Below, piece by piece: positions 1,575-39,893 of a DNA stretch of 64,000 nucleotides (within the stretch, counting starts at the first letter, position 1; each line of letters opens with the position of its first letter). The notes beneath the pieces were generated by a model. That model was not told where the DNA came from. It saw nothing but the letters and a program-made list of their open reading frames with translations, and ran no database searches. The DNA comes from Brumimicrobium glaciale. GTDB taxonomy: Bacteria; Bacteroidota; Bacteroidia; Flavobacteriales_D; Crocinitomicaceae. The stretch is taken from contig NZ_SETE01000003.1 in NCBI RefSeq assembly GCF_004152935.1, positions 387,876 to 451,875 of the forward strand. The letters are read 5' to 3'. The position numbers and the translations under genes are program-made.

Positions 1575-2789
1575 TTACATAATCACTTCATCAGTGAGTT
1601 CAAAATGATAATATGTTCCAATAGTTGCAATTTCTCTTTCATAAGATCCATCTAGTTGTTCTGTAAAAACATCAATTAATTGTGTACCAAAAGTTTTTTC
1701 TATATTTTCTTTCCAAATACCATCGTCAAAATACGTCATTTTAAAGTCGCCTCCTTCTCCCGGAGTTAAGGTTAGTTCTATTCGCCCTGACTTCTCAAAA
1801 GCATGTTTAATCGTATTACTCACCAATTCATTTATTATTAATCCCAAGGGCACTATGCTTTTAGCGCTCACACTTTTCAGCGTAGAATTAACAACAAAAA
1901 TGATGTTTTTATCTACCGAGCCTGTATCAATTAAATTTTTAATCAAGGTATTCAAGTAATCTTTAATATCAATATTCATTAAAGATTCATTCTGATATAG
2001 TTTTTGATGAATAAGTGACATTGTTAAAATTCGAGTGATGGCATCTTCAAAAGTTTCCTTTGCTTCTTCCGATTTTAATTCTCTTGATTGCAGTCTCAAT
2101 AAACTCACTATCACTTGAAGATTGTTTTTTACGCGGTGATGAATTTCTTGAAGTAAAATTGTTTTTTCTTTATTTTGAAACTCCACAATCTGCTTTTCTG
2201 CTTTCAATTCATCATAAGCGTCTGAAGTCTTTTTTACAGCCTGATTTATTAAAACCCCATATTGAATCATCACGAATCCGATTAGAAACATTGCTATTGC
2301 AAATTCGATGGATAAAACAAAAAGCTCATTTGAACTTATTTCGGCAATGAAATGCGCGTTAGGCTTAAAGACGTAATTATAGTAAAAGAAATAAACGATC
2401 GTATTGACAATCAAGTAAAAAATTCCCCAGCGATTTCCTAAGGTAAAAAAGGAGGTGAGAATTATAACGACCATCCACAATGCTTCTTGAAGGTGCAAAT
2501 ACTCAGGTAGGGCGAAAATGGCAAAAGAAACTATAGCCGCGAGTGTGAAATAAAATACAATAGCGACCTCTTTATAGGCTTTTAGAGACCTTAGCAAATA
2601 CGATCCTATTAAGCTGATTAGAAAAGCTACTAAATAGTAGTTAAAAAGACTATTGTCCTGTATGAAAGTGAATACAGACAGGAGCAAGCCAATGAATGCA
2701 TAACCAATAGTTATTCTCCAAACAAAGACAAACTGCGCCCGTTCTTGAAAACTGGGAAACTTATTTTCAGGTATTTTAAAAAAACTCAT
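1575..2789 (-). CDS. Membrane sensor histidine kinase, HisKA_2 type (tandem paralogue)
   Basis: 404 aa with the same architecture and length as 218..1432, and roughly 70% identical by eye. H-box EIHHRVKNNLQVIVSLL. Confidence 0.8.
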   Translation of the reverse strand: MSFFKIPENKFPSFQERAQFVFVWRITIGYAFIGLLLSVFTFIQDNSLFNYYLVAFLISLIGSYLLRSLKAYKEVAIVFYFTLAAIVSFAIFALPEYLHLQEALWMVVIILTSFFTLGNRWGIFYLIVNTIVYFFYYNYVFKPNAHFIAEISSNELFVLSIEFAIAMFLIGFVMIQYGVLINQAVKKTSDAYDELKAEKQIVEFQNKEKTILLQEIHHRVKNNLQVIVSLLRLQSRELKSEEAKETFEDAITRILTMSLIHQKLYQNESLMNIDIKDYLNTLIKNLIDTGSVDKNIIFVVNSTLKSVSAKSIVPLGLIINELVSNTIKHAFEKSGRIELTLTPGEGGDFKMTYFDDGIWKENIEKTFGTQLIDVFTEQLDGSYEREIATIGTYYHFELTDEVIM

Positions 2790-14393: not shown

Positions 14394-14729
14394 ATGGGTA
14401 CAATAAGACAAAACAAAATTGAGAAAGTCATTCAGGAGGAAGTTTCTAAAGTTTTCCAACAGAATGCGCGCGAATTGTGCATGGGAGCAATGGTTACAGC
14501 AACTGTGGTTCGTGTAACTCCGGATTTGAGCTTGGCTCGTGTATATTTAAGTATTTTTGCTGGTCCACCAAAGGAGGAAGTATTGCAAAACATACAGATT
14601 AACAAAGGAAAAATTCGTGGTGACGTTGGAAGAAGATTAAAAGATATGCGTCATATTCCTGATTTAGAATTCTTCATTGATGATTCATTGGATTACGCTG
14701 AAAAAATCGATGAATTGTTAAAGAAATAA
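14394..14729 (+). CDS. rbfA: Ribosome-binding factor A
   Basis: 111 aa of RbfA-like sequence and size, with conserved rbfA-FtsX-like permease synteny as seen in Bacteroidota. Confidence 0.75.
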   Translation: MGTIRQNKIEKVIQEEVSKVFQQNARELCMGAMVTATVVRVTPDLSLARVYLSIFAGPPKEEVLQNIQINKGKIRGDVGRRLKDMRHIPDLEFFIDDSLDYAEKIDELLKK

Positions 14730-14733
14730 GTCT

Positions 14734-15945
14734 ATGAATGTTGCTCGATTCATAGCACGAAGGTACTTTAAAGCTAAAAAATCTCGAAATGTAATTAACC
14801 TCATCACTATGATTAGTGTTGTGGGAATTGCTATTTCTACTGCTGCTTTGGTGATTTTACTTTCTGCATTTAATGGAATTGAGCAAATGGTTATAAAATT
14901 GTACAGCGATTTTGATCCATCGATCAGTATTCGTTCTGCAAAAGCAAAAACCTTTAATCAAGGCTTTATAGATTTAGAGAAAATTAAAGCGGTTGAAGGG
15001 GTTCAAAATACATCGCGTGCCATTGAGGAAGTCATCATTTTAAAACATGAAGACAAATGGGTTCATGCTGAAATGGTTGGTGTAGACACCAGTTTTTTAA
15101 CCATGTCTAAGATGAAAGACCACCTTGTGGATGGTATTCCAACTTTGTATATCAACAATAAACCGCAAGCCATTTTTGGAGCATATTTGTTAGATAAATT
15201 GGGCGGTTACATTCCGATGTCTGATCATATTCAAGAACAAATCACGTTTAATGTTCCTTTACGAGAAGCAAAACTACGCCCAGGAAAAAACCCTTTGAAT
15301 GTGCGTGTTGTTAGTGTTTCCTCTCGCATGAATTTCAACAGAGAAGTCAACGCTGAAAAAGCAGTTATTCCTTATGAATTGGCCAATGAACTGCTAGAAT
15401 ACGGAGAAGATATTACGGCAATGTATGTTGATGTGAATGACGATTACAATCTAAATTCGGTCAAAAAAGAGATCCAAAATGTTGTAGGAGATGATTTTGA
15501 AGTAAAAACTAACTTTGAAAAGAATGAGTTGATTTTCAAAACAAGTCAATCCGAACGCCTAATAGTTTACTTCATTTTGGTGTTTATTTTTATTCTGGCT
15601 TCTTTCAATCTCATTGCTTCTATTGCGATGCTTTTTGTTGAGAAAAAGTCAGACATTACCACACTTTATGGATTAGGAGCAACAAAAAGCACCATTTTCA
15701 ACATCTTCTTCTTTGAAGGATTAATGATTGTGGGAAGAGGAATTGTTTTCGGATTAATAATCGGTTATTTTGTGACCTTCTCACAAATCTATCTCGGCTT
15801 AGTAGCAATGCCAAGCGCACCTGGAGAAAGTTTCCCGATGGTGACCACTTGGTCTGATGCATTTATGATTATTTCATCAGTGACTGTTTTAGGACTGATC
15901 GTTTCTTATTTCCCAACGAAGGTTTTGATTCGTAGACACGAATGA
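14734..15945 (+). CDS. FtsX-like ABC transporter permease (LolC/E-like)
   Basis: 403 aa. N-terminal TM, a large periplasmic loop, and a C-terminal FtsX 3-TM bundle. Confidence 0.7.
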   Translation: MNVARFIARRYFKAKKSRNVINLITMISVVGIAISTAALVILLSAFNGIEQMVIKLYSDFDPSISIRSAKAKTFNQGFIDLEKIKAVEGVQNTSRAIEEVIILKHEDKWVHAEMVGVDTSFLTMSKMKDHLVDGIPTLYINNKPQAIFGAYLLDKLGGYIPMSDHIQEQITFNVPLREAKLRPGKNPLNVRVVSVSSRMNFNREVNAEKAVIPYELANELLEYGEDITAMYVDVNDDYNLNSVKKEIQNVVGDDFEVKTNFEKNELIFKTSQSERLIVYFILVFIFILASFNLIASIAMLFVEKKSDITTLYGLGATKSTIFNIFFFEGLMIVGRGIVFGLIIGYFVTFSQIYLGLVAMPSAPGESFPMVTTWSDAFMIISSVTVLGLIVSYFPTKVLIRRHE

Positions 15946-16336: not shown

Positions 16337-18310
16337 TCAATTGTCAATTAACTGAACGAATCCAGATTTATCAACATCTTCGCCAGTAATAGTTTTGGCT
16401 TTTATGACATAGAAAAATGTTCCGTTGGTAATTTTATTGCCTTTTTTATCTGTTCCATCCCATTTGAAATCAGGAGTATCGAATTCACGAACTAAATTTC
16501 CCCAGCGATTTACGATCACACATTCTAGTTGTTGAATTCCTTCGAAAGAGATCAGTTTAAAGTAATCGTTAATACCATCAGAATTTGGTGTAAAAACGTT
16601 GGGTACTTCAACATCACAATTGGGATTCACTGAGATAAAAACAGAATCTAAATCTGATTTACATCCTCCAACATTTGCTTGTACATAAAAGTAGCTAGAT
16701 TCTGAAGGTGACAACATCTGACTCGCCCCAATCAAATTATTTGGAAACCATGTGAATTCAGAATTGGGAATCGATGAAACAGCCACTAAGTTTGCTTCAT
16801 CACCTAAGCATAAGTTAACACTGTCTGGTAAAGAAACAAGTGGCTTTTCGCCTAAAACGAGTTGAATGGAATCTATTTCCGTTCCACAAACTGGATGTGT
16901 TCCTTCAAGATATACCCAGCCAATATCAGCAATGGTAGTACTTAAAACTGGAGTTGTTTCGTTTCTTGGTAACCATAAAAAATCAGTTTCAGTTAGATTA
17001 GAGATGGCTTGTAAACTGTTTTGGTCGCCTTCACAAAAAACGGTATTTCCTTCAATTTCAACTTCTAATTCCTCCAGTACAGTCATTTCAAATTCAGCTG
17101 TTGCTACACATCCTTGTGGACTAGTTGCTGTTACTTCATAAATTGTTGTTGTACTTGGCGCAACTGTAATTGTAGCTAGTGTTAAATTATTATTCGTCCA
17201 TAAAAAATCTGTTTGTGGAATTGAAGAAATAACTTTAATTAATCCTGCTGTACCCTCACATATAACCGAATCACCTTCAAATGTAAGAACCGGTAAAGGA
17301 TTAACATTTACGACAACCGTTCCTGTGTTCGATATACAACCGTTTGCATCTTCTCCCACTACAGTATAAGACGTTGTTGCGTTTGGAGAAACATTAATTG
17401 TAGCTCCTGCTCCACCTGGCGTCCAAGTATAAGTCATATTTGAAGACACAGAACTTGCTGTAATATCAACATTATCTCCCTCACAAATGGTTTGTGCTGA
17501 ATTCACTTGAATTACAGGGTTTGGTGGAATTGTAACAGTAACTTGATCAGTATAAGTACAAACTGGTCGAAAAGAGATATCATCAATTGAAAAGTCATTT
17601 CCACCTCCAGAACTATTCAAATTAGTAATACAAATATCAATTGATGTATTGGCTCCGGAATTCCATACTTCAAAAAATTGATTCCATGTACATGCATTCG
17701 TTGCCGTTGAAAATGGTGTTCCTAATGTGGTTCCGTTTATAGAAAATTGAAGTTGTGCAACATTTGGATCATTTAAAGCATTGGCTGCCCAAGTACTAAA
17801 CTGATAGTTCGTATTGGGGGAGACATTTACAGTCTGACACCAAACATTTGTTCCTGGAATATCAGCACCGTTAACAACCATCATATTTCCAGTTCCGGTA
17901 GTATGGTCTGGACAAGAGCTAAAGTTATTGTGAGCATTGCTTGGAGAAGTAGTTATGGCATAAGTACCAGGATTTGAAAGCAATCCATAAGTACCGCCTG
18001 GAACACCAAGTGTATAACCAGTTGTAAAACCAGTATTTCCTGCTGAAAAATCTCCATTTACTACTATTTCTGGTCCCAAATCAGTCGCAAAACAGCTATA
18101 CGTTCCTGATGTAGAAACTGTAATAGAAGATTGAGAAGATCCTGTACTCCAAGCATAACTATCTAGTCCTTGATTGGCTTGAAGTGTATACGTTTGACCA
18201 CAAAGTAATGTTGAATCATTTCCGATAGAGAAGTTAATGTTACAAGGACTTTGGGCTTGCAGTGTAAAAACACAAAACAATAGGGCGACTAAAAGGAATA
18301 TTGATTTCAT
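16337..18310 (-). CDS. T9SS cargo / adhesin-like protein: CBM-like N-terminal beta-sandwich, Ig-like repeats, type-B C-terminal sorting domain (gliding-motility-associated CTD)
   Basis: 657 aa with a signal peptide. C-terminal motif PNVFTPNSDGINDYF...RWGNLV. The N-terminal ~230 aa, ending NDFSIDDISF, is paralogous to the N-terminus of 23577..25880. Confidence 0.75.
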   Translation of the reverse strand: MKSIFLLVALLFCVFTLQAQSPCNINFSIGNDSTLLCGQTYTLQANQGLDSYAWSTGSSQSSITVSTSGTYSCFATDLGPEIVVNGDFSAGNTGFTTGYTLGVPGGTYGLLSNPGTYAITTSPSNAHNNFSSCPDHTTGTGNMMVVNGADIPGTNVWCQTVNVSPNTNYQFSTWAANALNDPNVAQLQFSINGTTLGTPFSTATNACTWNQFFEVWNSGANTSIDICITNLNSSGGGNDFSIDDISFRPVCTYTDQVTVTIPPNPVIQVNSAQTICEGDNVDITASSVSSNMTYTWTPGGAGATINVSPNATTSYTVVGEDANGCISNTGTVVVNVNPLPVLTFEGDSVICEGTAGLIKVISSIPQTDFLWTNNNLTLATITVAPSTTTIYEVTATSPQGCVATAEFEMTVLEELEVEIEGNTVFCEGDQNSLQAISNLTETDFLWLPRNETTPVLSTTIADIGWVYLEGTHPVCGTEIDSIQLVLGEKPLVSLPDSVNLCLGDEANLVAVSSIPNSEFTWFPNNLIGASQMLSPSESSYFYVQANVGGCKSDLDSVFISVNPNCDVEVPNVFTPNSDGINDYFKLISFEGIQQLECVIVNRWGNLVREFDTPDFKWDGTDKKGNKITNGTFFYVIKAKTITGEDVDKSGFVQLIDN

Positions 18311-18493
18311 AATTTTTAAAATATCTGGTTATTAAAATTAATTTAATAGTTATTGTTAGACGAGATGAAAGGCTAAATAGTTGTTTTGCTTTTCACATTA
18401 ATATGCCAAATTCTAACTAATAAAGAACAGTTTAAACTATTGAAAGTAAAGGCATCTCGATAAACATAATCAGCTTTAGTTTCATAATCTAAG

Positions 18494-18531
18494 GTATAAA
18501 AAAAGTGATGGATGAAATGCATCCACCACTT
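18494..18531 (-). terminator. Rho-independent terminator downstream of the 1015-aa T9SS gene
   Basis: On the minus strand: stem agtggtggatgcatttcatccatcact followed by ttttttta. Confidence 0.65.
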
Positions 18532-18540
18532 TTAAAAAAT

Positions 18541-21500
18541 TTATTGAACAATCAGTTTTACAACTTCAGTTTTATTTGCATCTGTAATATGAGCAAAGAA
18601 TACACCTTTACTCCAATTGTTTACATCTATTTTCACAGTTGAATTAATTTCTCCTAAATCAGAAACAACTTTTCCGTTTACATCAAATATTACAACATTT
18701 GCTTTAGCAGTATTCCCTAATTCGATAGTGATAAAATCGCTACTTGGATTAGGATAAATTCTCAAAGCTTCTTCGCTGTTTTCATCTGTTAGACCAACAG
18801 TTGTCGTAATATTCACTGAATTTGTAATGGTTGTATCTCCACAATCGTTTGAAACAACAACTGTAGCTGTATACACTCCTTTATCATCGTAAATATGACT
18901 TATGTTTCCTGATGTATTTGAATCGGTATTTCCATCTCCAAAGTCCCAAGCATAAGCATACCCATTTTGAGCATTTTGAACATTGAATAACGTAACTCCA
19001 GATGGGTGATAAACTACTTCTAACATTCCCACATTTGGAACGTCATTTACAGTAACAATTGTTGAACCCAAACCTGTACATCCTAACGTATCGGTAACTT
19101 GAACAACATAAGCACCTGACTGATTAACAGCATAAGTTTGCGTTACAACACTTGTTCCATTCCATACATAAGTTGAAGTTACATTTCCAGCATCTAAAAC
19201 TACAGAATCACCTTCACAAATTGTATAATCACCTCCTAAGTCTACAATTGGATTAGTGTTATTTAAAACAATAGTCTGAACCATTTTCTGACAGTTACTT
19301 GTAGAATCCTTTCTCATCCACAAATAGTAAGTTCCAGGAGCTAAACTATCAAATTCTTTACCCGCTTGCCATTTTGTTGGTTGATTTGTTGAAGATGTTG
19401 TAATACCAAACTCATATTGTCCAGCAGAGATTTTTAAGTTTTTAAGCGCATGTCTATTTGCATCACCACCCGTTTGAGCACTAAAACAATGTTTCCAATT
19501 GCTAACATCTTCAGTTATATAAGCAGCAGGCAATGCAACATTATCAAAAATAAGAACACCATTCACCATCAAAGAAAGTGCGCCATTTTCAATACTAATA
19601 TCAACAGGAACATCAGCTTGATTTTTCCAACTACTCAGGTCAGCATTATAAGCTAATGTAGTCAGATCTCCAGGAGCAGGAGCATTAGTATTTTGTTTTC
19701 CATAAACTAAATAAACACCTGCTGAATTCGAGCCGTTATCCGCAGAGTCAAAGCTCAATCTTAATTTAGAACCACGTCCATTATTTATGTTACTGTTCGA
19801 AACATTAATGTCATCTGCAAAAGAATAAGCAATACCATCTGCTCCACCTGTTCCGTATGTGTTAATTGGTAAATCAACAGTCAGGTCAAAAGAGATTTGC
19901 ATTGAATTATCACTTCCTAAAACTTGATTCGTTGGTGAAATAACCAAAGATCCATTATTTCCAGTTGCAGAAGGTGTAATTACAGCCATTCCATTTGTCA
20001 AACTTGTGTTTCCTACAACAACAAGGTCAGCTGTATTAGAAGGATCAGAAAAATCATTTTCGAAAATTATTGAACCAGTACTTTGACCGAAATCATTATT
20101 TGCTTGAATTGATCCACCTAAATTTACACAGTTGTAATCTACTACATTTACTTCTGTACCGAAACCAACAGTTATAGTTTTAACCGTAGATTCATTTTCA
20201 ACAGAAGAACACTCAGTTGATCTGATTTTATATTTGATTTTATAAACTGAATCTACTGGAGCATTAATTGCATAAGTATTAGTAGTACCCCAAGCAGCTA
20301 ATGTAACGTTGTTTTCATCCAAGAAAGTATATTCCCAAGCAGCTGTACCTGCTAAACTTGGTAGATTTATAACTTCAAAATTAATAATCGCTGGAGCACT
20401 GCATAAACCACTCGCATTGTAAGTGAAATCTGTAATTACTTTATCAATAGGACTTACTATTACTGTTTCAACGGCTGTACATCCGTTTATTGAAGTTCCT
20501 GTCACTTCATACGTTGTAACATCAGTAGGAGAAGCAGTAACAATTGCAGTATTAGAATTTGATAATCCAGCACTTGGTGACCAAGAATATGTATTTGCAC
20601 CACTAGCCATTATAGCAGCAGGATTACCTCCACAGAATGCGATATCTTGAAAATTCACGGTTAAAGGTGGCGCAGAACTAACTGTTATTGTCTCCACTCC
20701 TGTTAGGATTTCAGTATTATTAGCTAAACATGTTGCTTTTACTCTAATATCAGTCGTTTGAGCCAAACTAGACTCGTAATATGTTGAATCTGAATTTGCG
20801 AAATCAACCCAATTACCATTGTCTAGTTTTTGCCATTGATATACTAATCCATTCACATAAAACAATTCATCAAAAGTTCCATTAAACAACTCATTATCAC
20901 AAAGCGAAGATTGTGCTAATGTCATGTTATAAGGTCCTGTAAAAGCTTGACTTTGACAGTCAACATAATTGATGTGTTGAAATTTAATTTTTGGTACACT
21001 TTGATATAAATTTTGTGCCACCGGTGGAGTTTGTAAACTTGGAATGTTAAAATCATTATAGGTTCTCATAGAACGATTTCCTGTAACAGGGTATGTACCC
21101 CATTGAATTTGGCTGCCGGTATAACCAGGAGACTGATCACGGACTCCTACTACAATATTAGAAACACCATCCCATAAAAAAGTAGAATCTAATTCTATTT
21201 CCATCCATCCATTTGCACCATTTGCAGTAACCGTTCCGTTATAAAGCGTTTCTAGATTAGCAAAAGCTTCCCAATCATTTCCATCTTGAAAAGCTGTTTT
21301 ACTCGTTTGTCCAATTAAAATTGTCCAATTATCAGTGCTAACAACGTTTCCCGACACATTTAAAAAACTTAATTTACTTATTTCAGTGGGAACACCTTGA
21401 ACTGCGGGTAAAAATTCTGAGGCTAAGTAAATACTTTGACTATAACTATAGCCATAATATGAATATACTGGAATATTGGCGTTCTGACCTGTTCCTTGAT

Positions 21501-21588
21501 CCAGAGAGGTTTCATAAACTTGTGATTGAGCACTATTAAAAAAGAGCGCTGAAATAAAAATGATGAGTGAATAATGTTTAAGTTTCAT
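18541..21588 (-). CDS. Large T9SS cargo protein with type-A C-terminal sorting domain (Por_Secre_tail-like), multiple Ig/PKD-like repeats
   Basis: 1015 aa with a signal peptide. C-terminus RIYPNPSSDFITIEL...KLIVQ is typical of a T9SS type-A CTD. Confidence 0.75.
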   Translation of the reverse strand: MKLKHYSLIIFISALFFNSAQSQVYETSLDQGTGQNANIPVYSYYGYSYSQSIYLASEFLPAVQGVPTEISKLSFLNVSGNVVSTDNWTILIGQTSKTAFQDGNDWEAFANLETLYNGTVTANGANGWMEIELDSTFLWDGVSNIVVGVRDQSPGYTGSQIQWGTYPVTGNRSMRTYNDFNIPSLQTPPVAQNLYQSVPKIKFQHINYVDCQSQAFTGPYNMTLAQSSLCDNELFNGTFDELFYVNGLVYQWQKLDNGNWVDFANSDSTYYESSLAQTTDIRVKATCLANNTEILTGVETITVSSAPPLTVNFQDIAFCGGNPAAIMASGANTYSWSPSAGLSNSNTAIVTASPTDVTTYEVTGTSINGCTAVETVIVSPIDKVITDFTYNASGLCSAPAIINFEVINLPSLAGTAAWEYTFLDENNVTLAAWGTTNTYAINAPVDSVYKIKYKIRSTECSSVENESTVKTITVGFGTEVNVVDYNCVNLGGSIQANNDFGQSTGSIIFENDFSDPSNTADLVVVGNTSLTNGMAVITPSATGNNGSLVISPTNQVLGSDNSMQISFDLTVDLPINTYGTGGADGIAYSFADDINVSNSNINNGRGSKLRLSFDSADNGSNSAGVYLVYGKQNTNAPAPGDLTTLAYNADLSSWKNQADVPVDISIENGALSLMVNGVLIFDNVALPAAYITEDVSNWKHCFSAQTGGDANRHALKNLKISAGQYEFGITTSSTNQPTKWQAGKEFDSLAPGTYYLWMRKDSTSNCQKMVQTIVLNNTNPIVDLGGDYTICEGDSVVLDAGNVTSTYVWNGTSVVTQTYAVNQSGAYVVQVTDTLGCTGLGSTIVTVNDVPNVGMLEVVYHPSGVTLFNVQNAQNGYAYAWDFGDGNTDSNTSGNISHIYDDKGVYTATVVVSNDCGDTTITNSVNITTTVGLTDENSEEALRIYPNPSSDFITIELGNTAKANVVIFDVNGKVVSDLGEINSTVKIDVNNWSKGVFFAHITDANKTEVVKLIVQ

Positions 21589-21616
21589 ATTGCGTGTTTA
21601 ATAATTAATATTAAAC

Positions 21617-21624
21617 CAAAAATA
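21617..21624 (-). promoter_or_regulatory. Candidate -7 box TATTTTTG (minus strand) for the 1015-aa T9SS gene
   Basis: TAnnTTTG match 28 nt upstream of the ATG at 21588. The shared 18-mer lies ~34 nt further upstream. Confidence 0.35.
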
Positions 21625-21658
21625 ACTACAGCGCTTTTATATATCGAAAATTTAGCGA

Positions 21659-21676
21659 GACAAAAACAAGACAACT
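21659..21676. promoter_or_regulatory. Conserved 18-mer GACAAAAACAAGACAACT upstream of a T9SS cargo gene (copy 1)
   Basis: Exact 18/18 identity with 25993..26010. Both copies sit ~32-34 nt upstream of a TAnnTTTG box belonging to a minus-strand T9SS cargo gene. Confidence 0.5.
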
Positions 21677-21725
21677 AGGAATTAAAAATCAACTATACCT
21701 TTCAGTTCTTAAAGATTGAGTTGGA

Positions 21726-23369
21726 TTAAACGGTTTTTATAAATTGAATTAATTCCTTTTGAGACTCTATCGAGAGTTTTTTTCTAAGTCTTAAATTAGA
21801 TTTCCGCACTGAATCTTGAGATATTCCTAAAATTCTAGACATTTCAAGACTTGAAAGATTCAACTTGATTAGCATAGCCAATCTTGTCTCAGAATTTGTT
21901 AAATCATCCTGTTTTTGTATCAAAGAATCATAAAAACTAGGATGTATTTTATCGAATAAATGCTTAAACTCCAATAAATCATTCTCTGTCAGTAATGTAA
22001 AAGTGTTGATTTTCTCATATATAACTTCTTTCTCTTTTTGCAAAGTGAGATTTTCATCCGATACTTCTCTTTTATTAATCTCCTGATTTAAGGTGTCAAT
22101 AATATCGTTTTTCACAACTAAGTTTTCTAAAATCTTATTCAACTCTTCCTCGTTCTTTTTAAGCTCTGTTCGTATTTTTTCTTTTTCTAATTCTAAAATT
22201 TTATGCTCATAAATTTTCCTTTTTCGCATCAAATAAATGATGTAAATACAAGCTAAAATGATCACAGATAATATAATTGCAATTCCATAATAGAGTTGAC
22301 CTGTTCGTTTCTCTTTTTCAATTAATAATTCAGACTCATTTCTGTTTTTCTGAAATTTTATTTGAAAAATCATGTTTTGAAGATTCAATTGATCGTATTC
22401 CCTTCCTGATGAATCTTTATATAAAACACTTTGTTGATAAGATTCATAAGCCAATTTATACTCTTTAAGATGTTCCCAGTAAATTGTTTTTATATAATGA
22501 TAGCGCATTACCGAATAATAGTCAGTCACTTGAGGAATCAAAGAATCAAGGGTTTTCATATAAGTTTCAACCAAATCAAAACGCCCTCCATTTAACTCTA
22601 TTTCTATAAGTAGCGCAAGGGCATTTAAGGCGCTTTCTGTTTGCTCGTTTTTCAGACTTAATTCTTTATCTAAAATCAAACATTTTCTTGCACTGATTAA
22701 ATCTCCATTGAGATAGTAGATGAACCCCAAGTTCCCATTGATTATACCAATCCATTCATTGTTATCTATCTTCGTTGCTAGCTTTAAACCTTTATTGAAA
22801 TAATAAATCGAAGAGTCAATATCACCTAATTTTTTGTGAATTAATCCCAACGTATTAATCATACTAATTTTCAAAGTACTCTCTTCTTTCTGTTGTTTTA
22901 AAGCTTTTAAAAGTAATATCCTTGATTCCTCATATCTTCTAAAATCATAGAAATAAGTTCCTTTCATTTCATAAAACTCAGCTGCAAAAGAAATTTCTGA
23001 AATATCGTTCTCTTTTAAAATATTACTCACAACATCTAAATACTCATAAGCTTGATAAGGTTCATTGTCCTTAGTGAGTTTCTTGGCTATTTCAAAACAA
23101 ATTTCTGCATAAACGATGGTGTTTGAACCTTTAAATAATGCTGCTTTTTTAGTAATGAAACTTACGTATGCGTTATTACTTTCAAAGACATCTTTGTTTC
23201 CTACTTTTATGAAGTCTAAAAGTTCTTTCTCTTTATGAATACTTGGTTGTTCAGTCTTTTCTAAAGCTGATAAATTGGTGATTTCTTCACTTTCTTGCGT
23301 AATTGCATGTGAATTGGATACCAAATAAAAGATATAGAACAATATCAATAATAATCTTTTTTGCCTCAA
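21726..23369 (-). CDS. Membrane-anchored one-component regulator: signal peptide, periplasmic TPR repeats, single TM, coiled coil, C-terminal LuxR/GerE-type HTH
   Basis: 547 aa. A TPR-like region, a TM helix (LYYGIAIILSVIILACIYIIYLM), and a C-terminal LuxR-type HTH (LEMSRILGISQDSVRKSNLRLRKKL). Confidence 0.7.
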   Translation of the reverse strand: MRQKRLLLILFYIFYLVSNSHAITQESEEITNLSALEKTEQPSIHKEKELLDFIKVGNKDVFESNNAYVSFITKKAALFKGSNTIVYAEICFEIAKKLTKDNEPYQAYEYLDVVSNILKENDISEISFAAEFYEMKGTYFYDFRRYEESRILLLKALKQQKEESTLKISMINTLGLIHKKLGDIDSSIYYFNKGLKLATKIDNNEWIGIINGNLGFIYYLNGDLISARKCLILDKELSLKNEQTESALNALALLIEIELNGGRFDLVETYMKTLDSLIPQVTDYYSVMRYHYIKTIYWEHLKEYKLAYESYQQSVLYKDSSGREYDQLNLQNMIFQIKFQKNRNESELLIEKEKRTGQLYYGIAIILSVIILACIYIIYLMRKRKIYEHKILELEKEKIRTELKKNEEELNKILENLVVKNDIIDTLNQEINKREVSDENLTLQKEKEVIYEKINTFTLLTENDLLEFKHLFDKIHPSFYDSLIQKQDDLTNSETRLAMLIKLNLSSLEMSRILGISQDSVRKSNLRLRKKLSIESQKELIQFIKTV

Positions 23370-23576
23370 AACCTCATCTCTTTTTTCATGTAAAATTGAT
23401 AGTCAATTACGAATTCCCAACTTTTTAATTAAACAATTGAATTAAAGCTTTATCAATAAATTCAAAATGCAGATTCGTAACTTCTGAAAGTTATCTAAAA
23501 TATTGAAACTAAAAAGTAAGTCCTTGTAAAAAATCACCGAATTCGTAATTGACAATTATAAATGATCAATTGGTTT

Positions 23577-25880
23577 CTATCTTATCAAAACAACAGTCCC
23601 CGTCTTTATAACTACATTTTCATTTTTTAATTCATTGAAAGTTATCTTCCAAGAATACATACCTGCTTTTACTATTTGACTCCCATAAGTTCCATCCCAA
23701 CCTACACTGTAATCATTTGATTCAAATATTTTTTCTCCCCAACGATTATATACTTCAAACTTATACTGCTGCGGATCTACTCCGACAGTCATTATTGGAA
23801 GAAAAACATTGTTATTGTCATCACCATTTGGCGTAAAAGCATTGGGCACATAAAAAATTGTTTGGTCTTTTACTGGAACAATTCTCGTTGTTGAGTCAAT
23901 ACAGCCTTTATCCGAAGTAACGATTAACTTAACCTCATAGTTGCTTTCTTTACCAAACGGGAAAGTGAAAATTGGATGAGCTTCTGTGCTTTGACCTAAT
24001 CCATCAAAATTCCATTGATTTTGAGCGTTCAACTCTGATTGATTTTCAAAATTAACTACAGGGTTATCAGAAAATATACTTTTTGGTTTAAAATCAAAAG
24101 CCGCAACAGGATCTGGGTTAATACAGATAAGCTTGTTTTCTGTCAAACTTGAGGTACAAAAATTGTCTGTTACAATTCTTAAACCGATGTTATAACATTT
24201 CACTTCTTCAAAAGTATAACTCATGGTGTTGTTCACTCCCACTTGGTTTCCATCAACAAACCAAGTATAATCTGTGCTTCCATTCACAACTGTTAAATCC
24301 GTAAAATCAACAGTTAATGGACTACAACCTTCATATAAATTAGCAGAGAATTGAATATCTGCTATTTCACTTAACTCTATACTTACAAATGCTGTATCTG
24401 CTTCACACGGAAAATCATTGCTGACCACAAATTGGAAATTATAGCTATTTTTCGATAAATTATCTAACTGTAAAATTCCAGATGAAGGATTAAATATTGA
24501 ATTTGGCAACCCATCCAAAGAGGACCAAACACCAGCATTATTGACGGTTAAAAAGTTATTTAAGTTTGTTGTTCCATCACTACAAAAACGTTCAGAAATA
24601 TCATTTCCTGCGCTTTTAAAAACCTTAATGTCCAGTTCAAAAACAGCAGTATCTGATGGACAAAATGTACTGGTTAAGACATAGTCATAATTATTAACCC
24701 CTAACAATTGGCTAATATCTAATTGTCCGCCATTTATCAATATCCCAAGTTCAGTATACCATGCTCCTGATGTAGAAATTGAAGGATCTAATAAACTAAA
24801 TAGATCAACATTTAGATCCGTATCACAAAAAGAAAACGAGTCATCCATTCCAGCGTCTGGAGGCGTGTGAAAAGTGACAATAAAATCTTGTTGTTCATCA
24901 CAATAACCGTCATCAGAAACAGTCACTGTAAAAGTTCCAGAAGTATCTACTTGAATTGTTTGGGTGGTTTCATTTGTAATCCACTCATAATCAAAACCAG
25001 GGTTTTCTGCATTCAAGGTTAAAATTTCTCCTTCACAGTCATTTAAAATAGTTGGTAGAGAAAATACTGGACTCGAATTATAAGTAACATCAATGGTATC
25101 ATTAAAAACACAAATCGGAGAAAATGAAATATCATCAAGTGAAAAGTCATTTCCACCACCAGTACTATTCAAATTGGTAATACAAATTTCAGCCGTTGTT
25201 GCTGTTCCAGAATTCCAAATTTCAAAAAACTGATTCCATGTACATGCAGTCGGAGAGGCAGCAAAAGGTATTCCTATATTCACCCCATTTATGGTAAATT
25301 GAAGTTGCGCAACATTTAGATCATTCAAAGCATTGGCTACCCAAGTACTAAATTCATAATCAGTATTTGGAGAGACATTTACTGTTTGACACCAAACACT
25401 CGTTCCGGGAATATTTGCTCCATTCACAATCATCATACTTCCAACTCCTGTTGTATGGTCTCCACAAAAGCTAAAATTATTGTGCACATTGCTGGGTGAG
25501 GTATTGATGGCATAAGTTCCAGGATTTGACAAAATTCCCCAAGAACCACCTGTACCCACAATATAATCTGTTAGAAAGCTTGTGTTTCCCTGTGAAAAAT
25601 CACCATTTATCACCAAGTTAGTAGATAAATATTTTACTTCAACGAAATAAATCCCAGTTGCTGAAACTGTCCTTGTAGCTGAATTTGATCCATTATCCCA
25701 AGTAATTGAAGGATTATTTGTTAAACCCGATAAATCAAATTGTAAGGTATTGTTTGGACAAAGTATGGTGTCGTTTCCAAGGTCTGGACCAGTAAATTGA
25801 GTGCATTGGGTTTGTGCATGAACTATAAAAATAGCGAACATACCCAATTGTATAAATATATTTTTGAAATGAGCTTTCAT
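23577..25880 (-). CDS. T9SS cargo / adhesin-like protein with CBM-like N-terminal domain and type-B C-terminal sorting domain
   Basis: 767 aa with a signal peptide. N-terminal domain ending NDFSLDDISF is paralogous to 16337..18310. C-terminus PNAFTPNGDDNNNVF...RWGEKIF. Confidence 0.75.
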   Translation of the reverse strand: MKAHFKNIFIQLGMFAIFIVHAQTQCTQFTGPDLGNDTILCPNNTLQFDLSGLTNNPSITWDNGSNSATRTVSATGIYFVEVKYLSTNLVINGDFSQGNTSFLTDYIVGTGGSWGILSNPGTYAINTSPSNVHNNFSFCGDHTTGVGSMMIVNGANIPGTSVWCQTVNVSPNTDYEFSTWVANALNDLNVAQLQFTINGVNIGIPFAASPTACTWNQFFEIWNSGTATTAEICITNLNSTGGGNDFSLDDISFSPICVFNDTIDVTYNSSPVFSLPTILNDCEGEILTLNAENPGFDYEWITNETTQTIQVDTSGTFTVTVSDDGYCDEQQDFIVTFHTPPDAGMDDSFSFCDTDLNVDLFSLLDPSISTSGAWYTELGILINGGQLDISQLLGVNNYDYVLTSTFCPSDTAVFELDIKVFKSAGNDISERFCSDGTTNLNNFLTVNNAGVWSSLDGLPNSIFNPSSGILQLDNLSKNSYNFQFVVSNDFPCEADTAFVSIELSEIADIQFSANLYEGCSPLTVDFTDLTVVNGSTDYTWFVDGNQVGVNNTMSYTFEEVKCYNIGLRIVTDNFCTSSLTENKLICINPDPVAAFDFKPKSIFSDNPVVNFENQSELNAQNQWNFDGLGQSTEAHPIFTFPFGKESNYEVKLIVTSDKGCIDSTTRIVPVKDQTIFYVPNAFTPNGDDNNNVFLPIMTVGVDPQQYKFEVYNRWGEKIFESNDYSVGWDGTYGSQIVKAGMYSWKITFNELKNENVVIKTGTVVLIR

Positions 25881-25992
25881 AAAATAATTTGAAAATAGAA
25901 ATTTAACATCAAGTTAAAGGCGAAAATTAAGCGTTAAAGCACATAATCATTCAAATATAAAAAGATTATTTCTGGAATTTTATTAGTCGTGG

Positions 25993-26010
25993 GACAAAAA
26001 CAAGACAACT
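25993..26010. promoter_or_regulatory. Conserved 18-mer GACAAAAACAAGACAACT (copy 2), upstream of the 767-aa T9SS gene
   Basis: Identical to 21659..21676. A TATATTTG box on the minus strand (plus coordinates 25952..25959) lies 32 nt downstream in gene orientation. Confidence 0.5.
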
Positions 26011-26168
26011 CTCAAAAAACAAGCATTTATTACCAGTTCATTAGGATGTATACAAAGAATACACTTGTTTTTGAAAAGTAATAATCAATTTTTATCATAC
26101 CTTTTCAATTATATAGTTTTCCAAAAAAGAAATCTCAACCAAGACAGCAATATTCAATCAATAACTAT

Positions 26169-26176
26169 TAAATTTG
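26169..26176 (+). promoter_or_regulatory. Candidate -7 box TAAATTTG for serS
   Basis: TAnnTTTG match 22 nt upstream of the ATG at 26198. Confidence 0.35.
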
Positions 26177-26197: not shown

Positions 26198-27469
26198 ATG
26201 TTGGAAATTACAAGGATTAGAGCAGAGAAAGATATCCTAATTGAAGGATTGAAAAAACGAGGCGTAGATTTTAGCCCACAATTAAACGAAATAACATCAC
26301 TTGATGAGTCATGGCGTGCTAAAAAATCTGAATTAGAATCAGTTCAATCCGACAGTAATAAAATCTCAAAAGAGATTGGAAAACTAATGGGAGCAGGAAA
26401 AACAGAGGAAGCGAATGCTGCCAAAGAACAAACTGCTAAACTTAAAAAACAAGAGCAAACGCTCAAGGATGAAGTAAGTCAATTAGAGGATAAAATTCAG
26501 GTATTACTTTACGAAGTTCCTAACGTTCCATTGGCAATAGTTCCTTCAGGCAAATCTGAAAATGATAACATAACAGTTGAAGAAGTAGGACAAAAAGTTC
26601 AGTTTTCTGGAACACCATTACCGCATTGGGAATTGGCTAAAAAATATGACATCATCGACTTTGAGTTGGGTGTTAAAGTTACAGGAGCAGGATTTCCATT
26701 CTATAAAGGAAAAGGAGCGAAAATTCAACGTGCTTTAATTAACTTCTTTTTAGCTGAAGCAGATAAAGCAGGTTATACTGAATATATTCCGCCATTAATG
26801 GTGAACGAAGCAAGTGGAATTGGCACTGGACAATTGCCAGACAAAGAAGGTCAAATGTATCATGATGCAAAGGACAATTTGTATTTGATTCCTACCTCTG
26901 AAGTTCCTTTAACGAATATTTACCGAGATGTCATTCTTCCAGATGAAAATTTCTCAATCAAAATGACAGGATACACGCCAAACTTTAGAAGGGAAGCTGG
27001 ATCTTATGGAAGTGATGTGCGTGGATTAAATCGTTTACATCAATTTGATAAAGTTGAATTGGTGCGTATTGAGCATCCAGACCGTTCTGAAAAAGCATTG
27101 GAAGAAATGGTAAACCACGTAAAAGGTTTACTTGAAAAACTAGGTTTACAATACCGTGTTTTACGTCTTTGTGGTGGTGATTTAGGATTTACATCTGCTA
27201 TCACTTATGATTTTGAAGTATTTTCAGCAGCACAAGAAAAATGGTTAGAAGTGAGTTCTGTTTCATTATTCGAAACTTTCCAAGCCAACCGTTTAAAATT
27301 GCGTTTCAGAAATGAAAGTAAGAAAACACAATTGTGTCACACTTTAAATGGAAGTGCTTTGGCATTACCAAGAATTTTGGCTGCGTTGCTTGAGAATTAT
27401 CAAACGCCAGAAGGAATTGAAATTCCAGAAGTATTAGAGAAGTATGTGAATTTTAAGATGATAAATTAA
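26198..27469 (+). CDS. serS: Seryl-tRNA synthetase
   Basis: 423 aa. N-terminal coiled-coil arm, then a class II core with motif 2 (FRREAGSYG) and motif 3. Confidence 0.9.
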   Translation: MLEITRIRAEKDILIEGLKKRGVDFSPQLNEITSLDESWRAKKSELESVQSDSNKISKEIGKLMGAGKTEEANAAKEQTAKLKKQEQTLKDEVSQLEDKIQVLLYEVPNVPLAIVPSGKSENDNITVEEVGQKVQFSGTPLPHWELAKKYDIIDFELGVKVTGAGFPFYKGKGAKIQRALINFFLAEADKAGYTEYIPPLMVNEASGIGTGQLPDKEGQMYHDAKDNLYLIPTSEVPLTNIYRDVILPDENFSIKMTGYTPNFRREAGSYGSDVRGLNRLHQFDKVELVRIEHPDRSEKALEEMVNHVKGLLEKLGLQYRVLRLCGGDLGFTSAITYDFEVFSAAQEKWLEVSSVSLFETFQANRLKLRFRNESKKTQLCHTLNGSALALPRILAALLENYQTPEGIEIPEVLEKYVNFKMIN

Positions 27470-36875: not shown

Positions 36876-38486
36876 ATGCAACATCTAACATCTAAGCTTT
36901 TAATTGCAGTCATTACTTGCTTTTTCCTTTTTACAAGCTGTAAAAAATTTGGTTTTGACAAAATAGCTGAGGGCAGCTGGAATCCAAACTTTGCTGTTCC
37001 AGTAGCACATGCCAATTTCGGTGTCTACGATATTTTGGCTTCTCAAGACAGTTCTGATTTAGTTGTAATAGATCCTAATACTGGTGCAATTGCGCTCGTT
37101 TATAAAGGAGAAATTTTAACGATTGATGCTGGAGTTTTGTTAAATATTCAAGACGAGAATGAAAGTTTAAACCTTGATGCTACTGACTTGAATGCTATTC
37201 CTGCGCCTATTTTCAACGGTTCGGTGACTTCGAATAACAATCAAAACTTTGTTTTTGACGCTGGAACTTCGGAGCTCCATCAAGTTACTTTCAAATCTGG
37301 AAACCTAGACATTAATGTTTCTACAGATTTAGCACATGATATTACATGCATTATTACTTTTCCAGAACTAAAAAAGAACGGAATTCCAATTTCAACTACA
37401 GTTTCACTCAATTATTCTGGAAATGTTCCACAAAGTGACAATGCTTCGGTTAATCTTTTAGAGGCGATTGGAGATTTTACTTTAGGAAATACCACTTTTA
37501 ATCAACTCGATGCTGAGATATCTATAACGATAAACGGAACTGGTCAACCAATAACAGGAACGGAGGATATAGACATTGAATTTGCTTTTAGTAATCTCGA
37601 TTTTAAAAATGCGAACGGATATTTCGGTCAGAATAATTTAGGGATTTCCGGAGATTCAGTTCTTTTAAGATTGTTCCAAAATGCCAATAATGGATATTTT
37701 GAATTAATTGATCCTAAGATTACGTTTTTTGCAGAAAACACATTCGGTTTTCCAATACGTATGAATTTTTCAAATTTAAAGACTGTTAATGTCAACAATG
37801 GAAATGAAATTTTTCTATCTGGATTTCCTAGTGTATTTGATATTCCTAGCGCTATTTCAATTGGACAATCATCATTTTCTCAATTTGATTTGAATACTAC
37901 AAACACAACTAATTTATCAACTATAGTCTCTTCTGTACCGAAGTTTTTTGTTTATACAGCCAATGTAGTATCGAATCCTGATGGAAATATTCCACCATTA
38001 AACTTTATCTCCGAAAAAAGTCAAATGAAAATTCGAACTGAGGTTGAATTGCCTATGGAAGGTTTAGCTTATGGATTTGAGTTAAGAGATACAGTTGATT
38101 TTAACTTTAATGAAGATCTTTCACAGTTGGAATCTGTAATGTTTAGATTAAATATAGACAACGGTTTCCCTGTAGAATTAAAGTCTCAAATAACATTTTT
38201 AGATGATAATTATAATCCTATTTTCTCAACATTTAATACACCCGAATCTGTTGTTTCTCCAGCCTTGGTAGATAATAATGGACGTGTGAATCAGCGCATA
38301 AAAAAAATCACTGATATTAATCTGACTCAGGATCAAATTTTACTTCTTTCTGGTGTAAAATATATTCTTTTAAATGCTGTAGCTCAAACGCTAGATGGGA
38401 CTAATGGACAAGTTATAAAACTATTTGATGACTATACCTTAGATTTTAAATTAGGACTTCAGGTTCAAGGAAAAATTAACTTATAA
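36876..38486 (+). CDS. Secreted lipoprotein of unknown function (lipobox FTSC)
   Basis: 536 aa. Signal peptide plus Cys, rich in N/S/T/G and probably beta-rich, with no catalytic motif recognised. Confidence 0.55.
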   Translation: MQHLTSKLLIAVITCFFLFTSCKKFGFDKIAEGSWNPNFAVPVAHANFGVYDILASQDSSDLVVIDPNTGAIALVYKGEILTIDAGVLLNIQDENESLNLDATDLNAIPAPIFNGSVTSNNNQNFVFDAGTSELHQVTFKSGNLDINVSTDLAHDITCIITFPELKKNGIPISTTVSLNYSGNVPQSDNASVNLLEAIGDFTLGNTTFNQLDAEISITINGTGQPITGTEDIDIEFAFSNLDFKNANGYFGQNNLGISGDSVLLRLFQNANNGYFELIDPKITFFAENTFGFPIRMNFSNLKTVNVNNGNEIFLSGFPSVFDIPSAISIGQSSFSQFDLNTTNTTNLSTIVSSVPKFFVYTANVVSNPDGNIPPLNFISEKSQMKIRTEVELPMEGLAYGFELRDTVDFNFNEDLSQLESVMFRLNIDNGFPVELKSQITFLDDNYNPIFSTFNTPESVVSPALVDNNGRVNQRIKKITDINLTQDQILLLSGVKYILLNAVAQTLDGTNGQVIKLFDDYTLDFKLGLQVQGKINL

Positions 38487-38504
38487 ATATTTAAATCACC
38501 AATT

Positions 38505-39893
38505 ATGAAAAATTTAGACTTAAATATTAATTTTCTTTGGATAACGATTATAGCTTTATTCATTGGAGGAAATGCAATTGCACAAAAGAATTACACATTT
38601 TATGCTCTCGAAAACACAGCCCAATCTCATTATTTTAATCCTGCTTTTAAACCTTCTGCAAAGGTTTCAGTGAGTATTCCTGGATTATCGATGCACAGTT
38701 TTGGTGCTTCCAATAGCGGATTTAACTTGAGTAATCTTTTTAATGAAAGACCTCAAGACGATTCCTTACAGATCGATCCGCAGAAAGCGCTTAGTAAAAT
38801 GAAGGATAAGAATTTCTTAACTTTTGAATCTTACAACGAGATTTTTGCTTTCGGAATAAAAGTAAATAAAAACTATTTCAGTTTTGGAATTACCAACCGA
38901 TTAAATGCCAGTTTTATCTATACTAAAGACCTATTTACAATCGCTATAGAAGGAAACGGTAAATCACTTTTGGGTGAGCGTGCAAGCTTTGATGGAACAG
39001 GAATAAACCTAAATTCTTATGTGGAATACGCTTTAGGTTTCAATAGGGAAATAAATGATAAACTTGATGTTGGGGTAAGAATGAAAATTCTTTCTGGTAT
39101 TGCTAACGTAAACACACGAAAAAGCGAATTCGGAATACACACCAATAAAACTACGTTTGATCTAACGTTTGATGGTTCTGCTATCATTAACACTTCTGGG
39201 ATTAAGCCATTTTATGATACGCTTGCAACAGACGATTATATGCCATCCGATAACGCTTATAATTTTAAAAACTTTGGTCTGGCCTTCGATTTAGGTGCTT
39301 CTTACAAATTGACAGAGAAAATAAAAGTATCAGCGAGCTTACTTGATTTAGGTTTTATTACTTGGAAAACTGAAAATGCTACTTTTGAAATTGACGAAAT
39401 CAATTACAGATTTGAAGGTGTGTATTTGAATCAATTTTTAACAGACTCAACGGAAGCCGTTTTTCAACAATTGCAAGACACTTTAAAAGATGTTTTTTCA
39501 CAAGAAGAAAGCAGCGAAAATTACAGAACAGGATTAGCTACTCGTTTTTATTTAGGTGGGACTTATGAGTTAACTGAAAAATTTAAAGTTGGAGCTACAT
39601 TATATAATGAAATAATTAAATCAAATTATCGTGTCGCAGCAATTGTTTCAGGAACTATTCAATTAAAAAATTGGTTAAGCGCAACCATAAATTATTCACA
39701 ATATGCTAGATCTTTTGGAAGTATTGGCGCTGGAGTTTCTTTGCGAGGTGGACCTATTCAATTCTTTGTTGCCTCAGACAATATACTTGGTTTTATTGCT
39801 CCACAAAATTCAAAAAATGTGCATTTAAGTTTTGGTTTAAATCTTTTGTTTGGGAAACCAGATAAGCCAATTAATAAAAAAAGATACGGATAA
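38505..39893 (+). CDS. Secreted outer-membrane-like protein of unknown function
   Basis: 462 aa with a signal peptide and an alternating hydrophobic pattern suggesting a beta-barrel. 19 nt downstream of the lipoprotein gene. Confidence 0.5.
   Translation: MKNLDLNINFLWITIIALFIGGNAIAQKNYTFYALENTAQSHYFNPAFKPSAKVSVSIPGLSMHSFGASNSGFNLSNLFNERPQDDSLQIDPQKALSKMKDKNFLTFESYNEIFAFGIKVNKNYFSFGITNRLNASFIYTKDLFTIAIEGNGKSLLGERASFDGTGINLNSYVEYALGFNREINDKLDVGVRMKILSGIANVNTRKSEFGIHTNKTTFDLTFDGSAIINTSGIKPFYDTLATDDYMPSDNAYNFKNFGLAFDLGASYKLTEKIKVSASLLDLGFITWKTENATFEIDEINYRFEGVYLNQFLTDSTEAVFQQLQDTLKDVFSQEESSENYRTGLATRFYLGGTYELTEKFKVGATLYNEIIKSNYRVAAIVSGTIQLKNWLSATINYSQYARSFGSIGAGVSLRGGPIQFFVASDNILGFIAPQNSKNVHLSFGLNLLFGKPDKPINKKRYG

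Follow-up and report, generated by a model that had tools for sequence, protein, structure and literature searches.

We report that positions 16337-25880 of a 64,000-nucleotide stretch of DNA from Brumimicrobium glaciale (Flavobacteriales, Crocinitomicaceae), here called the window, hold four genes, all on the minus strand. Three encode large proteins with C-terminal domains (CTDs) typical of type IX secretion system (T9SS) cargo, and the fourth a putative one-component regulator that combines tetratricopeptide repeats (TPR), a transmembrane (TM) segment and a helix-turn-helix (HTH). The open reading frames (ORFs) have exactly the coordinates and strands given in a first-pass annotation made from the letters alone (lengths in amino acids, aa, or nucleotides, nt; CBM, carbohydrate-binding module):

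23577..25880, minus strand: gene of the 767-aa T9SS type-B-CTD protein (ORF, Pfam/NCBIfam matches); layout signal peptide, Cys-rich lead-in, CBM-like jelly roll, Ig/PKD-like repeats, type-B CTD
21726..23369, minus strand: gene of the 547-aa one-component regulator (ORF, TPR match, hydropathy, HTH model); layout signal peptide (aa 6-24), predicted periplasmic TPR region (about aa 25-355), TM segment (aa 356-384) followed by RKRK, coiled-coil linker, HTH (aa about 490-547)
18541..21588, minus strand: gene of the 1015-aa T9SS type-A-CTD protein (ORF, Pfam/NCBIfam matches); layout signal peptide, N-terminal domain of no family, Ig-like repeats, weakly L-type-lectin-like middle, PKD, type-A CTD
16337..18310, minus strand: gene of the 657-aa T9SS type-B-CTD protein (ORF, Pfam/NCBIfam matches); layout signal peptide, CBM-like jelly roll, Ig_7 repeats, type-B CTD

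The first-pass annotation had proposed type-B sorting signals for the 657- and 767-aa proteins and a type-A signal for the 1015-aa protein, and all three score above the curated cut-offs of the respective profiles. For the 657-aa protein the matches are to CHU_C (PF13585; E = 2.9e-20, 72.6 bits, cut-off 27) and TIGR04131 (type B; E = 2.8e-14, 53.0 bits, cut-off 35), and for the 767-aa protein to the same two profiles (E = 9.7e-15, 54.9 bits, and E = 1.6e-11, 44.2 bits, respectively). The 1015-aa protein matches TIGR04183 (type A; E = 3.2e-15, 55.9 bits, cut-off 23) and Por_Secre_tail (PF18962; E = 4.5e-15, 56.1 bits, cut-off 27) at aa 944-1015 and also carries a PKD domain; its N-terminal and middle regions gave no significant Pfam or NCBIfam family (best L-type lectin, E = 0.012), and a search of the PDB sequences with this protein returned PKD and CTD pieces only. 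The signal peptides of the 657- and 767-aa proteins (basic n-region, hydrophobic h-region and A-Q-(S/T) site) were assigned by eye, and hydropathy agrees for the 657-aa protein. An adhesin or glycan-binding role of the cargo products is presumed. The type-B CTDs are placed as follows:

23616-23849, minus strand: type-B CTD of the 767-aa protein, aa 678-755 (TIGR04131/CHU_C)
16349-16612, minus strand: type-B CTD of the 657-aa protein, aa 567-654 (TIGR04131/CHU_C)

The regulator is identical (100%) to the NCBI protein ERX46_08945; its TTG start is uncertain and gene callers differ (547, 540 or 532 aa). Residues 137-334 match TPR_12 (36.9 bits, cut-off 30.1) and TPR_2 (27.6 bits, cut-off 27), and the hydropathy profile has two hydrophobic segments, aa 6-24 (a signal peptide, …VSNSHA/IT) and aa 356-384, after which RKRK follows. 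A signal peptide and a TM segment with RKRK behind it would place the TPR region in the periplasm and the last ~165 residues in the cytoplasm. A 12-sequence HTH profile searched against the PDB sequences matched mostly LuxR/NarL-type domains (NarL, StyR, VpsT, VraR, DosR, EvgA-type), and the distant homologues P0020 and P0021 have precomputed PF00196 (GerE) matches. For the AlphaFold2 model of the HTH (predicted local distance difference test, pLDDT, 89) the top 50 Foldseek matches in the PDB are all LuxR-type DNA-binding domains (root-mean-square deviation 1.0-1.4 Å over 54-62 residues), and the model fits the DosR, LiaR, NarL, EvgA, RcsB, VpsT and TraR domains at about 1.1 Å over 56-60 residues. 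At the level of the model, the C-terminus is demonstrably a LuxR-fold four-helix HTH, and the architecture first read from the sequence, i.e. signal peptide, TPR, one TM helix and a LuxR-type HTH, is borne out by TPR scores over threshold, hydropathy and fold. Two NCBIfam models match the regulator weakly, namely the 'BT3442 family' (2.3e-6; 26.7 bits, cut-off 940) and FimS (1.1e-8; 33.8 bits, cut-off 600), the FimS match extending over the last part of the TPR region and the TM helix. A literature search returned nothing relevant on a characterised TPR-TM-LuxR regulator or on BT3442.

The upstream regions of the 1015- and 767-aa genes have in common the 18-mer AGTTGTCTTGTTTTTGTC, of which the repeat finder detected just two exact copies in the window. 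It consists of a tandem TTGTCYY with 11-bp spacing, so that both heptads would face the same side of the helix, and the relaxed pattern TTGTCYY-N4-TTGTCYY has the same two sites in the 64 kb (0.06 expected). With the associated -7 boxes the sites are:

25991..26010, minus strand: tandem repeat AGTTGTCTTGTTTTTGTCCC (predicted operator), 110 nt before the ATG of the 767-aa gene
about 25952-25959, minus strand: -7 box TATATTTG, 31 nt downstream of the 767-gene repeat
21657..21676, minus strand: tandem repeat AGTTGTCTTGTTTTTGTCTC (predicted operator), 68 nt before the ATG of the 1015-aa gene and 50 nt past the regulator stop
about 21617-21624, minus strand: -7 box TATTTTTG, 32 nt downstream of the 1015-gene repeat

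Comparison of gene order in related genomes, which had been suggested at first pass, revealed that the linkage of regulator and cargo genes is conserved across genera. A motif scan and a metagenome search based on the regulator alignment supplied further loci (designated L followed by a number), and the module was found in about 15 genomes (those of Brumimicrobium and Fluviicola, and further metagenome contigs from Bacteroidota), with regulator identities of 32-93% and flanks that vary by genus. In B. aurantiacum and one further genome, where the regulator is 54-61% identical, the order 767-like, regulator, 1015-like and 657-like gene between serS and rbfA is kept, while a B. mesophilum fragment has the regulator gene and then the 1015 homologue. 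Every regulator homologue with enough downstream sequence to judge has a 1015-like gene directly behind it, even at 32-40% identity (L048, L073, L076, L079, L081, L082 and L084 of Fluviicola taffensis), where the flanking genes differ. CBM-like type-B genes stand before and/or after the regulator gene in L048, L073, L074, L076, L079, L080, L081 and L082. The F. taffensis module has its 1015-like gene duplicated and is flanked by nucleotide-sugar genes instead of serS/rbfA; the flanks of the remaining loci are unrelated housekeeping genes. In L005 (regulator 40% identical) the repeat is present after the regulator gene, where the contig ends. A Mucilaginibacter homologue (L006, 28% identity) has no cargo neighbours and no repeat, which argues that the association is specific to the orthologous group; its recognition helix is also different.

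In B. aurantiacum (L002, 6820-9984) an extra gene, for a 1054-aa type-B CTD protein with DUF8202, lies between the 767 homologue and the regulator gene; its product shares 57% identity with the 767-aa protein in the C-terminal half, a hint that genes of the module have been duplicated and have exchanged domains.

A copy of the repeat was found upstream of each 1015-like gene recovered, and the site in front of the 767-aa gene is conserved in L004 and L072. Across about 375 kb of related loci the relaxed pattern has 29 unique sites, all of them on the gene strand and 58-128 nt (mostly 58-83 nt) before the ATG of a secreted-protein gene; the genes behind them are mostly of the 1015 family, with about ten CBM-like type-B genes and one regulator paralogue. 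F. taffensis (L084) has three further copies. Spacer position 10 is T in 29/29 sites, though the pattern left it free, and a Bacteroidetes -7 box (TAnnTTTG, at least 7 of 8 positions) follows 31-34 nt downstream of the repeat in 23 of the 29, which puts the repeat at roughly -47 to -66 on the consensus-derived coordinates, a typical activator position. The -33 regions of these promoters look weak.

The fixed distance to the start codon could also mean that the repeat is a core promoter element, either the site of an alternative or extracytoplasmic function (ECF) sigma factor or UP-like, in which case the cargo genes would be co-expressed by the sigma factor and the TPR protein would be indirectly involved or uninvolved; T9SS genes of Porphyromonas are indeed under ECF sigma control (SigP, together with PorXY). 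We regard this as improbable, since a good housekeeping-type -7 box at 31-34 nt leaves the repeat too far upstream for a -35/-10 arrangement, tandem heptads at 11 bp are typical of transcription-factor sites, as are the four heptads in three of the loci described next, and no sigma or anti-sigma gene is linked to the clusters examined.

In the related contigs L045 (1857-1896), L075 (2049-2088) and L077 (4401-4440) the predicted operator is longer, with four TTGTC heptads in phase at 11-bp spacing (the L045 contig is frameshift-rich and was used solely for repeat position). In L083 a TTGTC repeat (369-386) precedes an ORF of 322 aa, the C-terminal ~160 residues of which match the TM segment and HTH of the regulator (55% identity); its N-terminal domain differs, making it a regulator paralogue with another sensor and the same operator. 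A sigma-70 and terminator consensus scan of the window was discarded as uninformative for a Bacteroidota genome, with 31 promoter-like sites against 47 expected and a real terminator missed.

The strict 20-mer was searched in 185,579 species genomes, a collection without B. glaciale, and gave 62 loci, which is about chance level; meaningful matches are confined to Brumimicrobium, Crocinitomicaceae, Fluviicola, Salibacter and one metagenome-assembled genome (MAG) labelled Chryseobacterium. The B. aurantiacum and B. mesophilum genomes have exactly one copy each, adjoining the regulator gene, which argues for a local and not a global regulon. Cargo-type genes follow five further sites, which are spread over Salibacter halophilus, one MAG each of Crocinitomicaceae and Fluviicola, and the MAG labelled Chryseobacterium.

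Which protein binds the repeat is the point on which the main competing explanation turns: the binder might be a different, unlinked factor, such as one that regulates surface or gliding proteins throughout the family, with the TPR-HTH protein co-located for other reasons or acting on other targets. It would account for repeat-bearing cargo genes that have no regulator gene beside them (Salibacter L064, Fluviicola L044) and for a repeat that is almost invariant across genomes with regulators just 32-40% identical. We consider it unlikely. The repeat begins about 30-130 nt from the regulator stop codon in 13 distinct loci, the strict motif is present once in each Brumimicrobium genome scanned, and the regulator paralogue of L083 itself stands behind a repeat. 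Moreover, the orthologues that keep the repeat show no variation in the HTH recognition-helix residues S517, S520, V521, R522, K523, N525, R527 and R529, and Fluviicola genomes encode the regulator at another locus, so L044 fits a remote member of the regulon.

Taking the gene content, domains, folds and topology signals together with the conserved linkage and the conserved cis-element in its fixed promoter geometry, we think it on balance probable that the cluster represents a conserved four-gene regulatory module of Bacteroidota of the Crocinitomicaceae type, in which a membrane-spanning one-component activator controls genes for T9SS-secreted surface proteins of glycan-binding type. According to this proposal, the regulator would enter the inner membrane by way of its signal peptide and single TM segment, so as to expose the ~330-aa TPR domain to the periplasm and the coiled coil and LuxR-fold HTH to the cytoplasm. 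The TPR domain would detect a periplasmic cue (our guess is a glycan fragment, or the state of the envelope or of secretion), upon which two HTH domains would bind the tandem heptads of TTGTCYY-N4-TTGTCYY, centred about 55 bp upstream of the transcription start that the -7 box (TAnnTTTG) implies. Bound at this position, the regulator would activate the promoters of the 767-aa type-B and 1015-aa type-A genes and, being encoded downstream of the 767-aa gene, would probably regulate itself. The products would then cross the outer membrane by the T9SS, type A by the PorV route and both type-B proteins by a PorP/SprF-type shuttle encoded elsewhere.

The sign of regulation is where a further alternative enters, namely that the TPR-TM-HTH protein is a repressor, or a checkpoint of secretion or envelope stress, with the repeat still as its site and both sign and signal different. 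Nothing in the sequence fixes the sign, the weak-looking -33 regions fit activation without proving it, and TPR domains bind proteins or peptides more often than sugars. We give this alternative little credence, since the repeat, centred near -55 on the upstream side of the core promoter, occupies the classical position of an activator site, and SusR, the closest functional precedent, is an activator.

Several observations weigh against an activator acting from the repeat. The C-terminus of the regulator is sub-threshold for Pfam GerE (PF00196; 17.2 against 23.5 bits, E = 0.004), the match spanning profile positions 4-56 of 57, and the -7 box is a consensus match, from which the promoter positions are derived. 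The repeat is absent, even at two mismatches, from the upstream region of the 657-aa gene in B. glaciale; the B. aurantiacum 767 homologue is without it, and so are the 427 nt available after the regulator gene in L071. Finally, no regulator gene lies within the 8 kb retrieved around the repeat-bearing cargo genes of S. halophilus (L064) and of the second Fluviicola locus (L044), so another conserved factor could be the binder. The suggestion made at first pass, that a periplasm-sensing regulator controls the adjacent adhesins, is strengthened by conserved linkage and a conserved repeat for the 767- and 1015-aa genes and not for the 657-aa gene, and control itself is something that we infer.

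The 1015-aa gene forms a transcription unit that runs from its repeat-bearing promoter to a strong terminator, and the 657-aa gene is placed after that terminator with its own, different upstream region. An inverted repeat lies in the spacer that separates the regulator gene from the 767-aa gene (207 nt in B. glaciale, 16-37 nt in two relatives); it and the terminator are placed as follows:

18494..18533, minus strand: intrinsic terminator after the 1015-aa gene, 14-bp stem and U7, -17.8 kcal/mol, z = -6.2
23399-23416 and 23539-23556, no strand assigned: 18-nt inverted repeat ATAGTCAATTACGAATTC / GAATTCGTAATTGACAAT, enclosing 122 nt of the 207-nt spacer

With the regulator gene downstream of the 767-aa gene and a short spacer in relatives, the two genes are probably co-transcribed at least there, and the regulator would accordingly be autoregulated through the upstream cargo gene. 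The inverted repeat (17/18 positions complementary) is kept with two changes in the 93%-identical relative L072 and is absent in L071; other Brumimicrobium loci, in which the spacer measures 16-37 nt, also lack it. Insertion of a small element and a structure with a regulatory role are both conceivable. In addition, a 16-nt identical stretch, CAATAACTATTAAATT, is found at 18340-18360 and 26154-26174, about 30 nt before the start codons of the 657-aa gene and serS, in the same relative orientation.

In B. glaciale the cluster is flanked by rbfA and an FtsX/MacB-type permease gene (14394-15945) on one side and by serS (26198-27469) on the other. The first-pass annotation had called it an 'islet', a label that we do not retain, and a genomic island or recent acquisition was rejected: the guanine-cytosine content of the region (0.30-0.37) equals the range across the whole window (0.30-0.37), no integrase or tRNA gene was seen among the flanking genes, and the serS/rbfA context is the same in at least three other Brumimicrobium-like genomes. 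The composition of the cluster stays constant while its neighbourhood varies between genera, which likewise argues for a functional unit and not for a recent acquisition.

The 657- and 767-aa proteins are paralogous solely over the N-terminal ~320 residues (324 aa at 53% identity, E = 1e-98). This part contains a shared domain with a core that shows 71% identity across 175 aligned positions and closes with the motif GGNDFS(I/L)DDISF:

25107-25628, minus strand: CBM-like jelly-roll domain of the 767-aa protein, aa about 85-258
17555-18076, minus strand: CBM-like jelly-roll domain of the 657-aa protein, aa about 79-252

No Pfam or NCBIfam model matches this domain, the best Pfam hit being CBM_4_9 (PF02018; E = 0.11, 13.3 bits against a cut-off of 25.9). 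Its AlphaFold2 model, computed with 40 homologues (pLDDT 95.2, predicted template modelling score 0.90), is a beta-jelly roll, for which Foldseek returned the alginate-binding CBM 8zqf (E = 1e-7) as well as CBM16, CBM4 and CBM22, with E-values of 1e-7 to 1e-5 overall, TM-scores of about 0.55-0.6 and 10-17% identity. Thus, the paralogy and the terminal motif of the N-terminal domain described at first pass stand, and 'CBM-like', the term used there, is, on the modelled structure, right as a description of fold and not of membership in any defined family. Compared with CBM4/9, CBM16, CBM22 and 8zqf the fold is alike; the Brumimicrobium domain differs in its own signatures, GDHTTGxGNMMxVNG and GNDFxxDDISF, and in belonging to a large family of its own.

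In a profile search that family comprised 10,899 representatives of clusters at 50% identity at E ≤ 1e-3, and 4,117 at E ≤ 1e-30. The 'DHTTG' domain occurs in up to 12 copies in one protein, and many members are stand-alone proteins of ~220 aa with a terminal PEP-CTERM (Planctomycetota, Acidobacteriota, Cyanobacteria), 40-50% identical to the Brumimicrobium domain and with the common motifs NGDFxxGNxGF, GDHTTGxGNMMxVNG and GNDFALDDISF. Identity of 40-50% between phyla is uncommonly high for an extracellular domain, and such conservation hints at a specific common ligand or even a catalytic role for the 'DHTTG' domain, and not at a generic CBM function. The locus hence draws attention to a very large extracellular domain family without a Pfam model.

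Type-B cargo is commonly encoded next to a PorP/SprF-like partner, and the first-pass annotation had pointed to the absence of such a gene beside the cargo genes. Pfam and/or NCBIfam searches covered 38 of the 46 window ORFs of at least 120 aa (Pfam 34, NCBIfam alone four more; the other eight are all shorter than 250 aa), NCBIfam was also run on six ORFs without a Pfam match, and six ORFs gave no family at all. None of the ORFs scanned matches PorP_SprF (PF11751) or TIGR03519, and no PorP/SprF gene was seen among the genes examined beside homologous clusters. The adjacency rule, taken in the first-pass annotation as the normal case, is common and not universal: in Flavobacterium johnsoniae nine of 12 type-B genes adjoin an sprF-like gene, and the three orphans (Fjoh_1123, Fjoh_1720, Fjoh_4934) are served by an unlinked shuttle, Fjoh_1677 (PMC12618676). 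By analogy, the 657- and 767-aa proteins would fit this 'orphan' class, likewise being type-B CTD genes without a porP/sprF-like gene next to them, whereas the CBM-like jelly roll, the Ig_7/PKD passengers and the local regulator are specific to the Brumimicrobium module. The module thereby adds natural orphan substrates for the study of shuttle choice.

The outer-membrane-like protein encoded at 38505-39893, put forward earlier as a candidate partner, was rejected in that role: it belongs to DUF5723 (1.3e-92), matches neither PorP_SprF nor TIGR03519, is 12 kb off and is not conserved with the cluster. It forms the second half of a pair on the plus strand (36876-39893), a 536-aa protein of no family followed by the 462-aa DUF5723 protein, and the pair shows no PorP/SprF sign. 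The 64 kb contain no T9SS core genes. Elsewhere in the window, two tandem paralogous genes for 404-aa histidine kinases of the HisKA_2 type lie at 218-1432 and 1575-2789 (minus strand), and a third HisKA_2 kinase, with a PAS domain, is encoded at 62501-63514. Large ORFs without a Pfam or NCBIfam match are present at 55684-58527 (minus strand, 947 aa) and at 47565-51967 (plus strand; 631, 285 and 554 aa), the latter three directly upstream of a MoxR-type AAA_3 ATPase gene (51970-53052).

To our knowledge, little has been learnt outside Porphyromonas about how individual T9SS cargo genes are regulated, and work on membrane-spanning one-component regulators in Bacteroidota has dealt almost entirely with polysaccharide utilisation loci (SusR). 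The module is a compact, testable case, comprising one regulator, a short operator predicted by phylogenetic footprinting and two or three target promoters, in cultured hosts (Brumimicrobium, Fluviicola taffensis). A more far-reaching version, which we advance tentatively and rate somewhat short of probable, is that an undescribed family of SusR-style TPR-LuxR activators forms with T9SS proteins, via the TTGTCYY operator, a self-contained sense-and-display module, and that its passenger domain founds the 'DHTTG' family of ~10,900 clusters, spread over several phyla in fusions with T9SS CTDs or PEP-CTERM, with a specific ligand or a catalytic role. T9SS substrates would then have a transcriptional circuit of their own, specific for the cargo, whose operator could be predicted from the sequence by itself.

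Among known systems, ToxR and CadC resemble the regulator as proposed here in being single polypeptides that cross the inner membrane, sense on the periplasmic side and bind directly to promoter DNA, often at direct repeats; their DNA-binding domain is an N-terminal OmpR winged helix, whereas the Brumimicrobium protein has its sensor at the N-terminus and a LuxR-type HTH at the C-terminus, with no sequence relationship between them. FimS, the TPR sensor histidine kinase of Porphyromonas gingivalis, which controls surface-appendage genes, also begins with a periplasmic TPR sensor, behind which comes a TM helix, but its output is a histidine kinase acting through FimR, while the regulator described here has the HTH fused and is in this sense one-component. 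The closest likeness is to SusR, which in Bacteroidota resides in the inner membrane, senses with a periplasmic part, binds DNA with a cytoplasmic domain and activates adjacent operons (PMC3878776). Both are of about the same size and combine a periplasmic sensor, a TM segment and a C-terminal cytoplasmic HTH, and both are encoded beside genes for surface proteins, their targets or presumed targets, a likeness of architecture and linkage as described in that study. The presumed targets here are T9SS CTD cargo genes and not SusC/D transporters or glycoside hydrolases, and the heptads are 11 bp apart, whereas the direct-repeat sites predicted for the SusR family by phylogenetic footprinting are 67-77 bp apart (PMC3878776). 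Moreover, the DNA-binding domain of SusR was reported to have no similarity to known transcription factors (PMC3878776), while the HTH modelled here has the LuxR fold.

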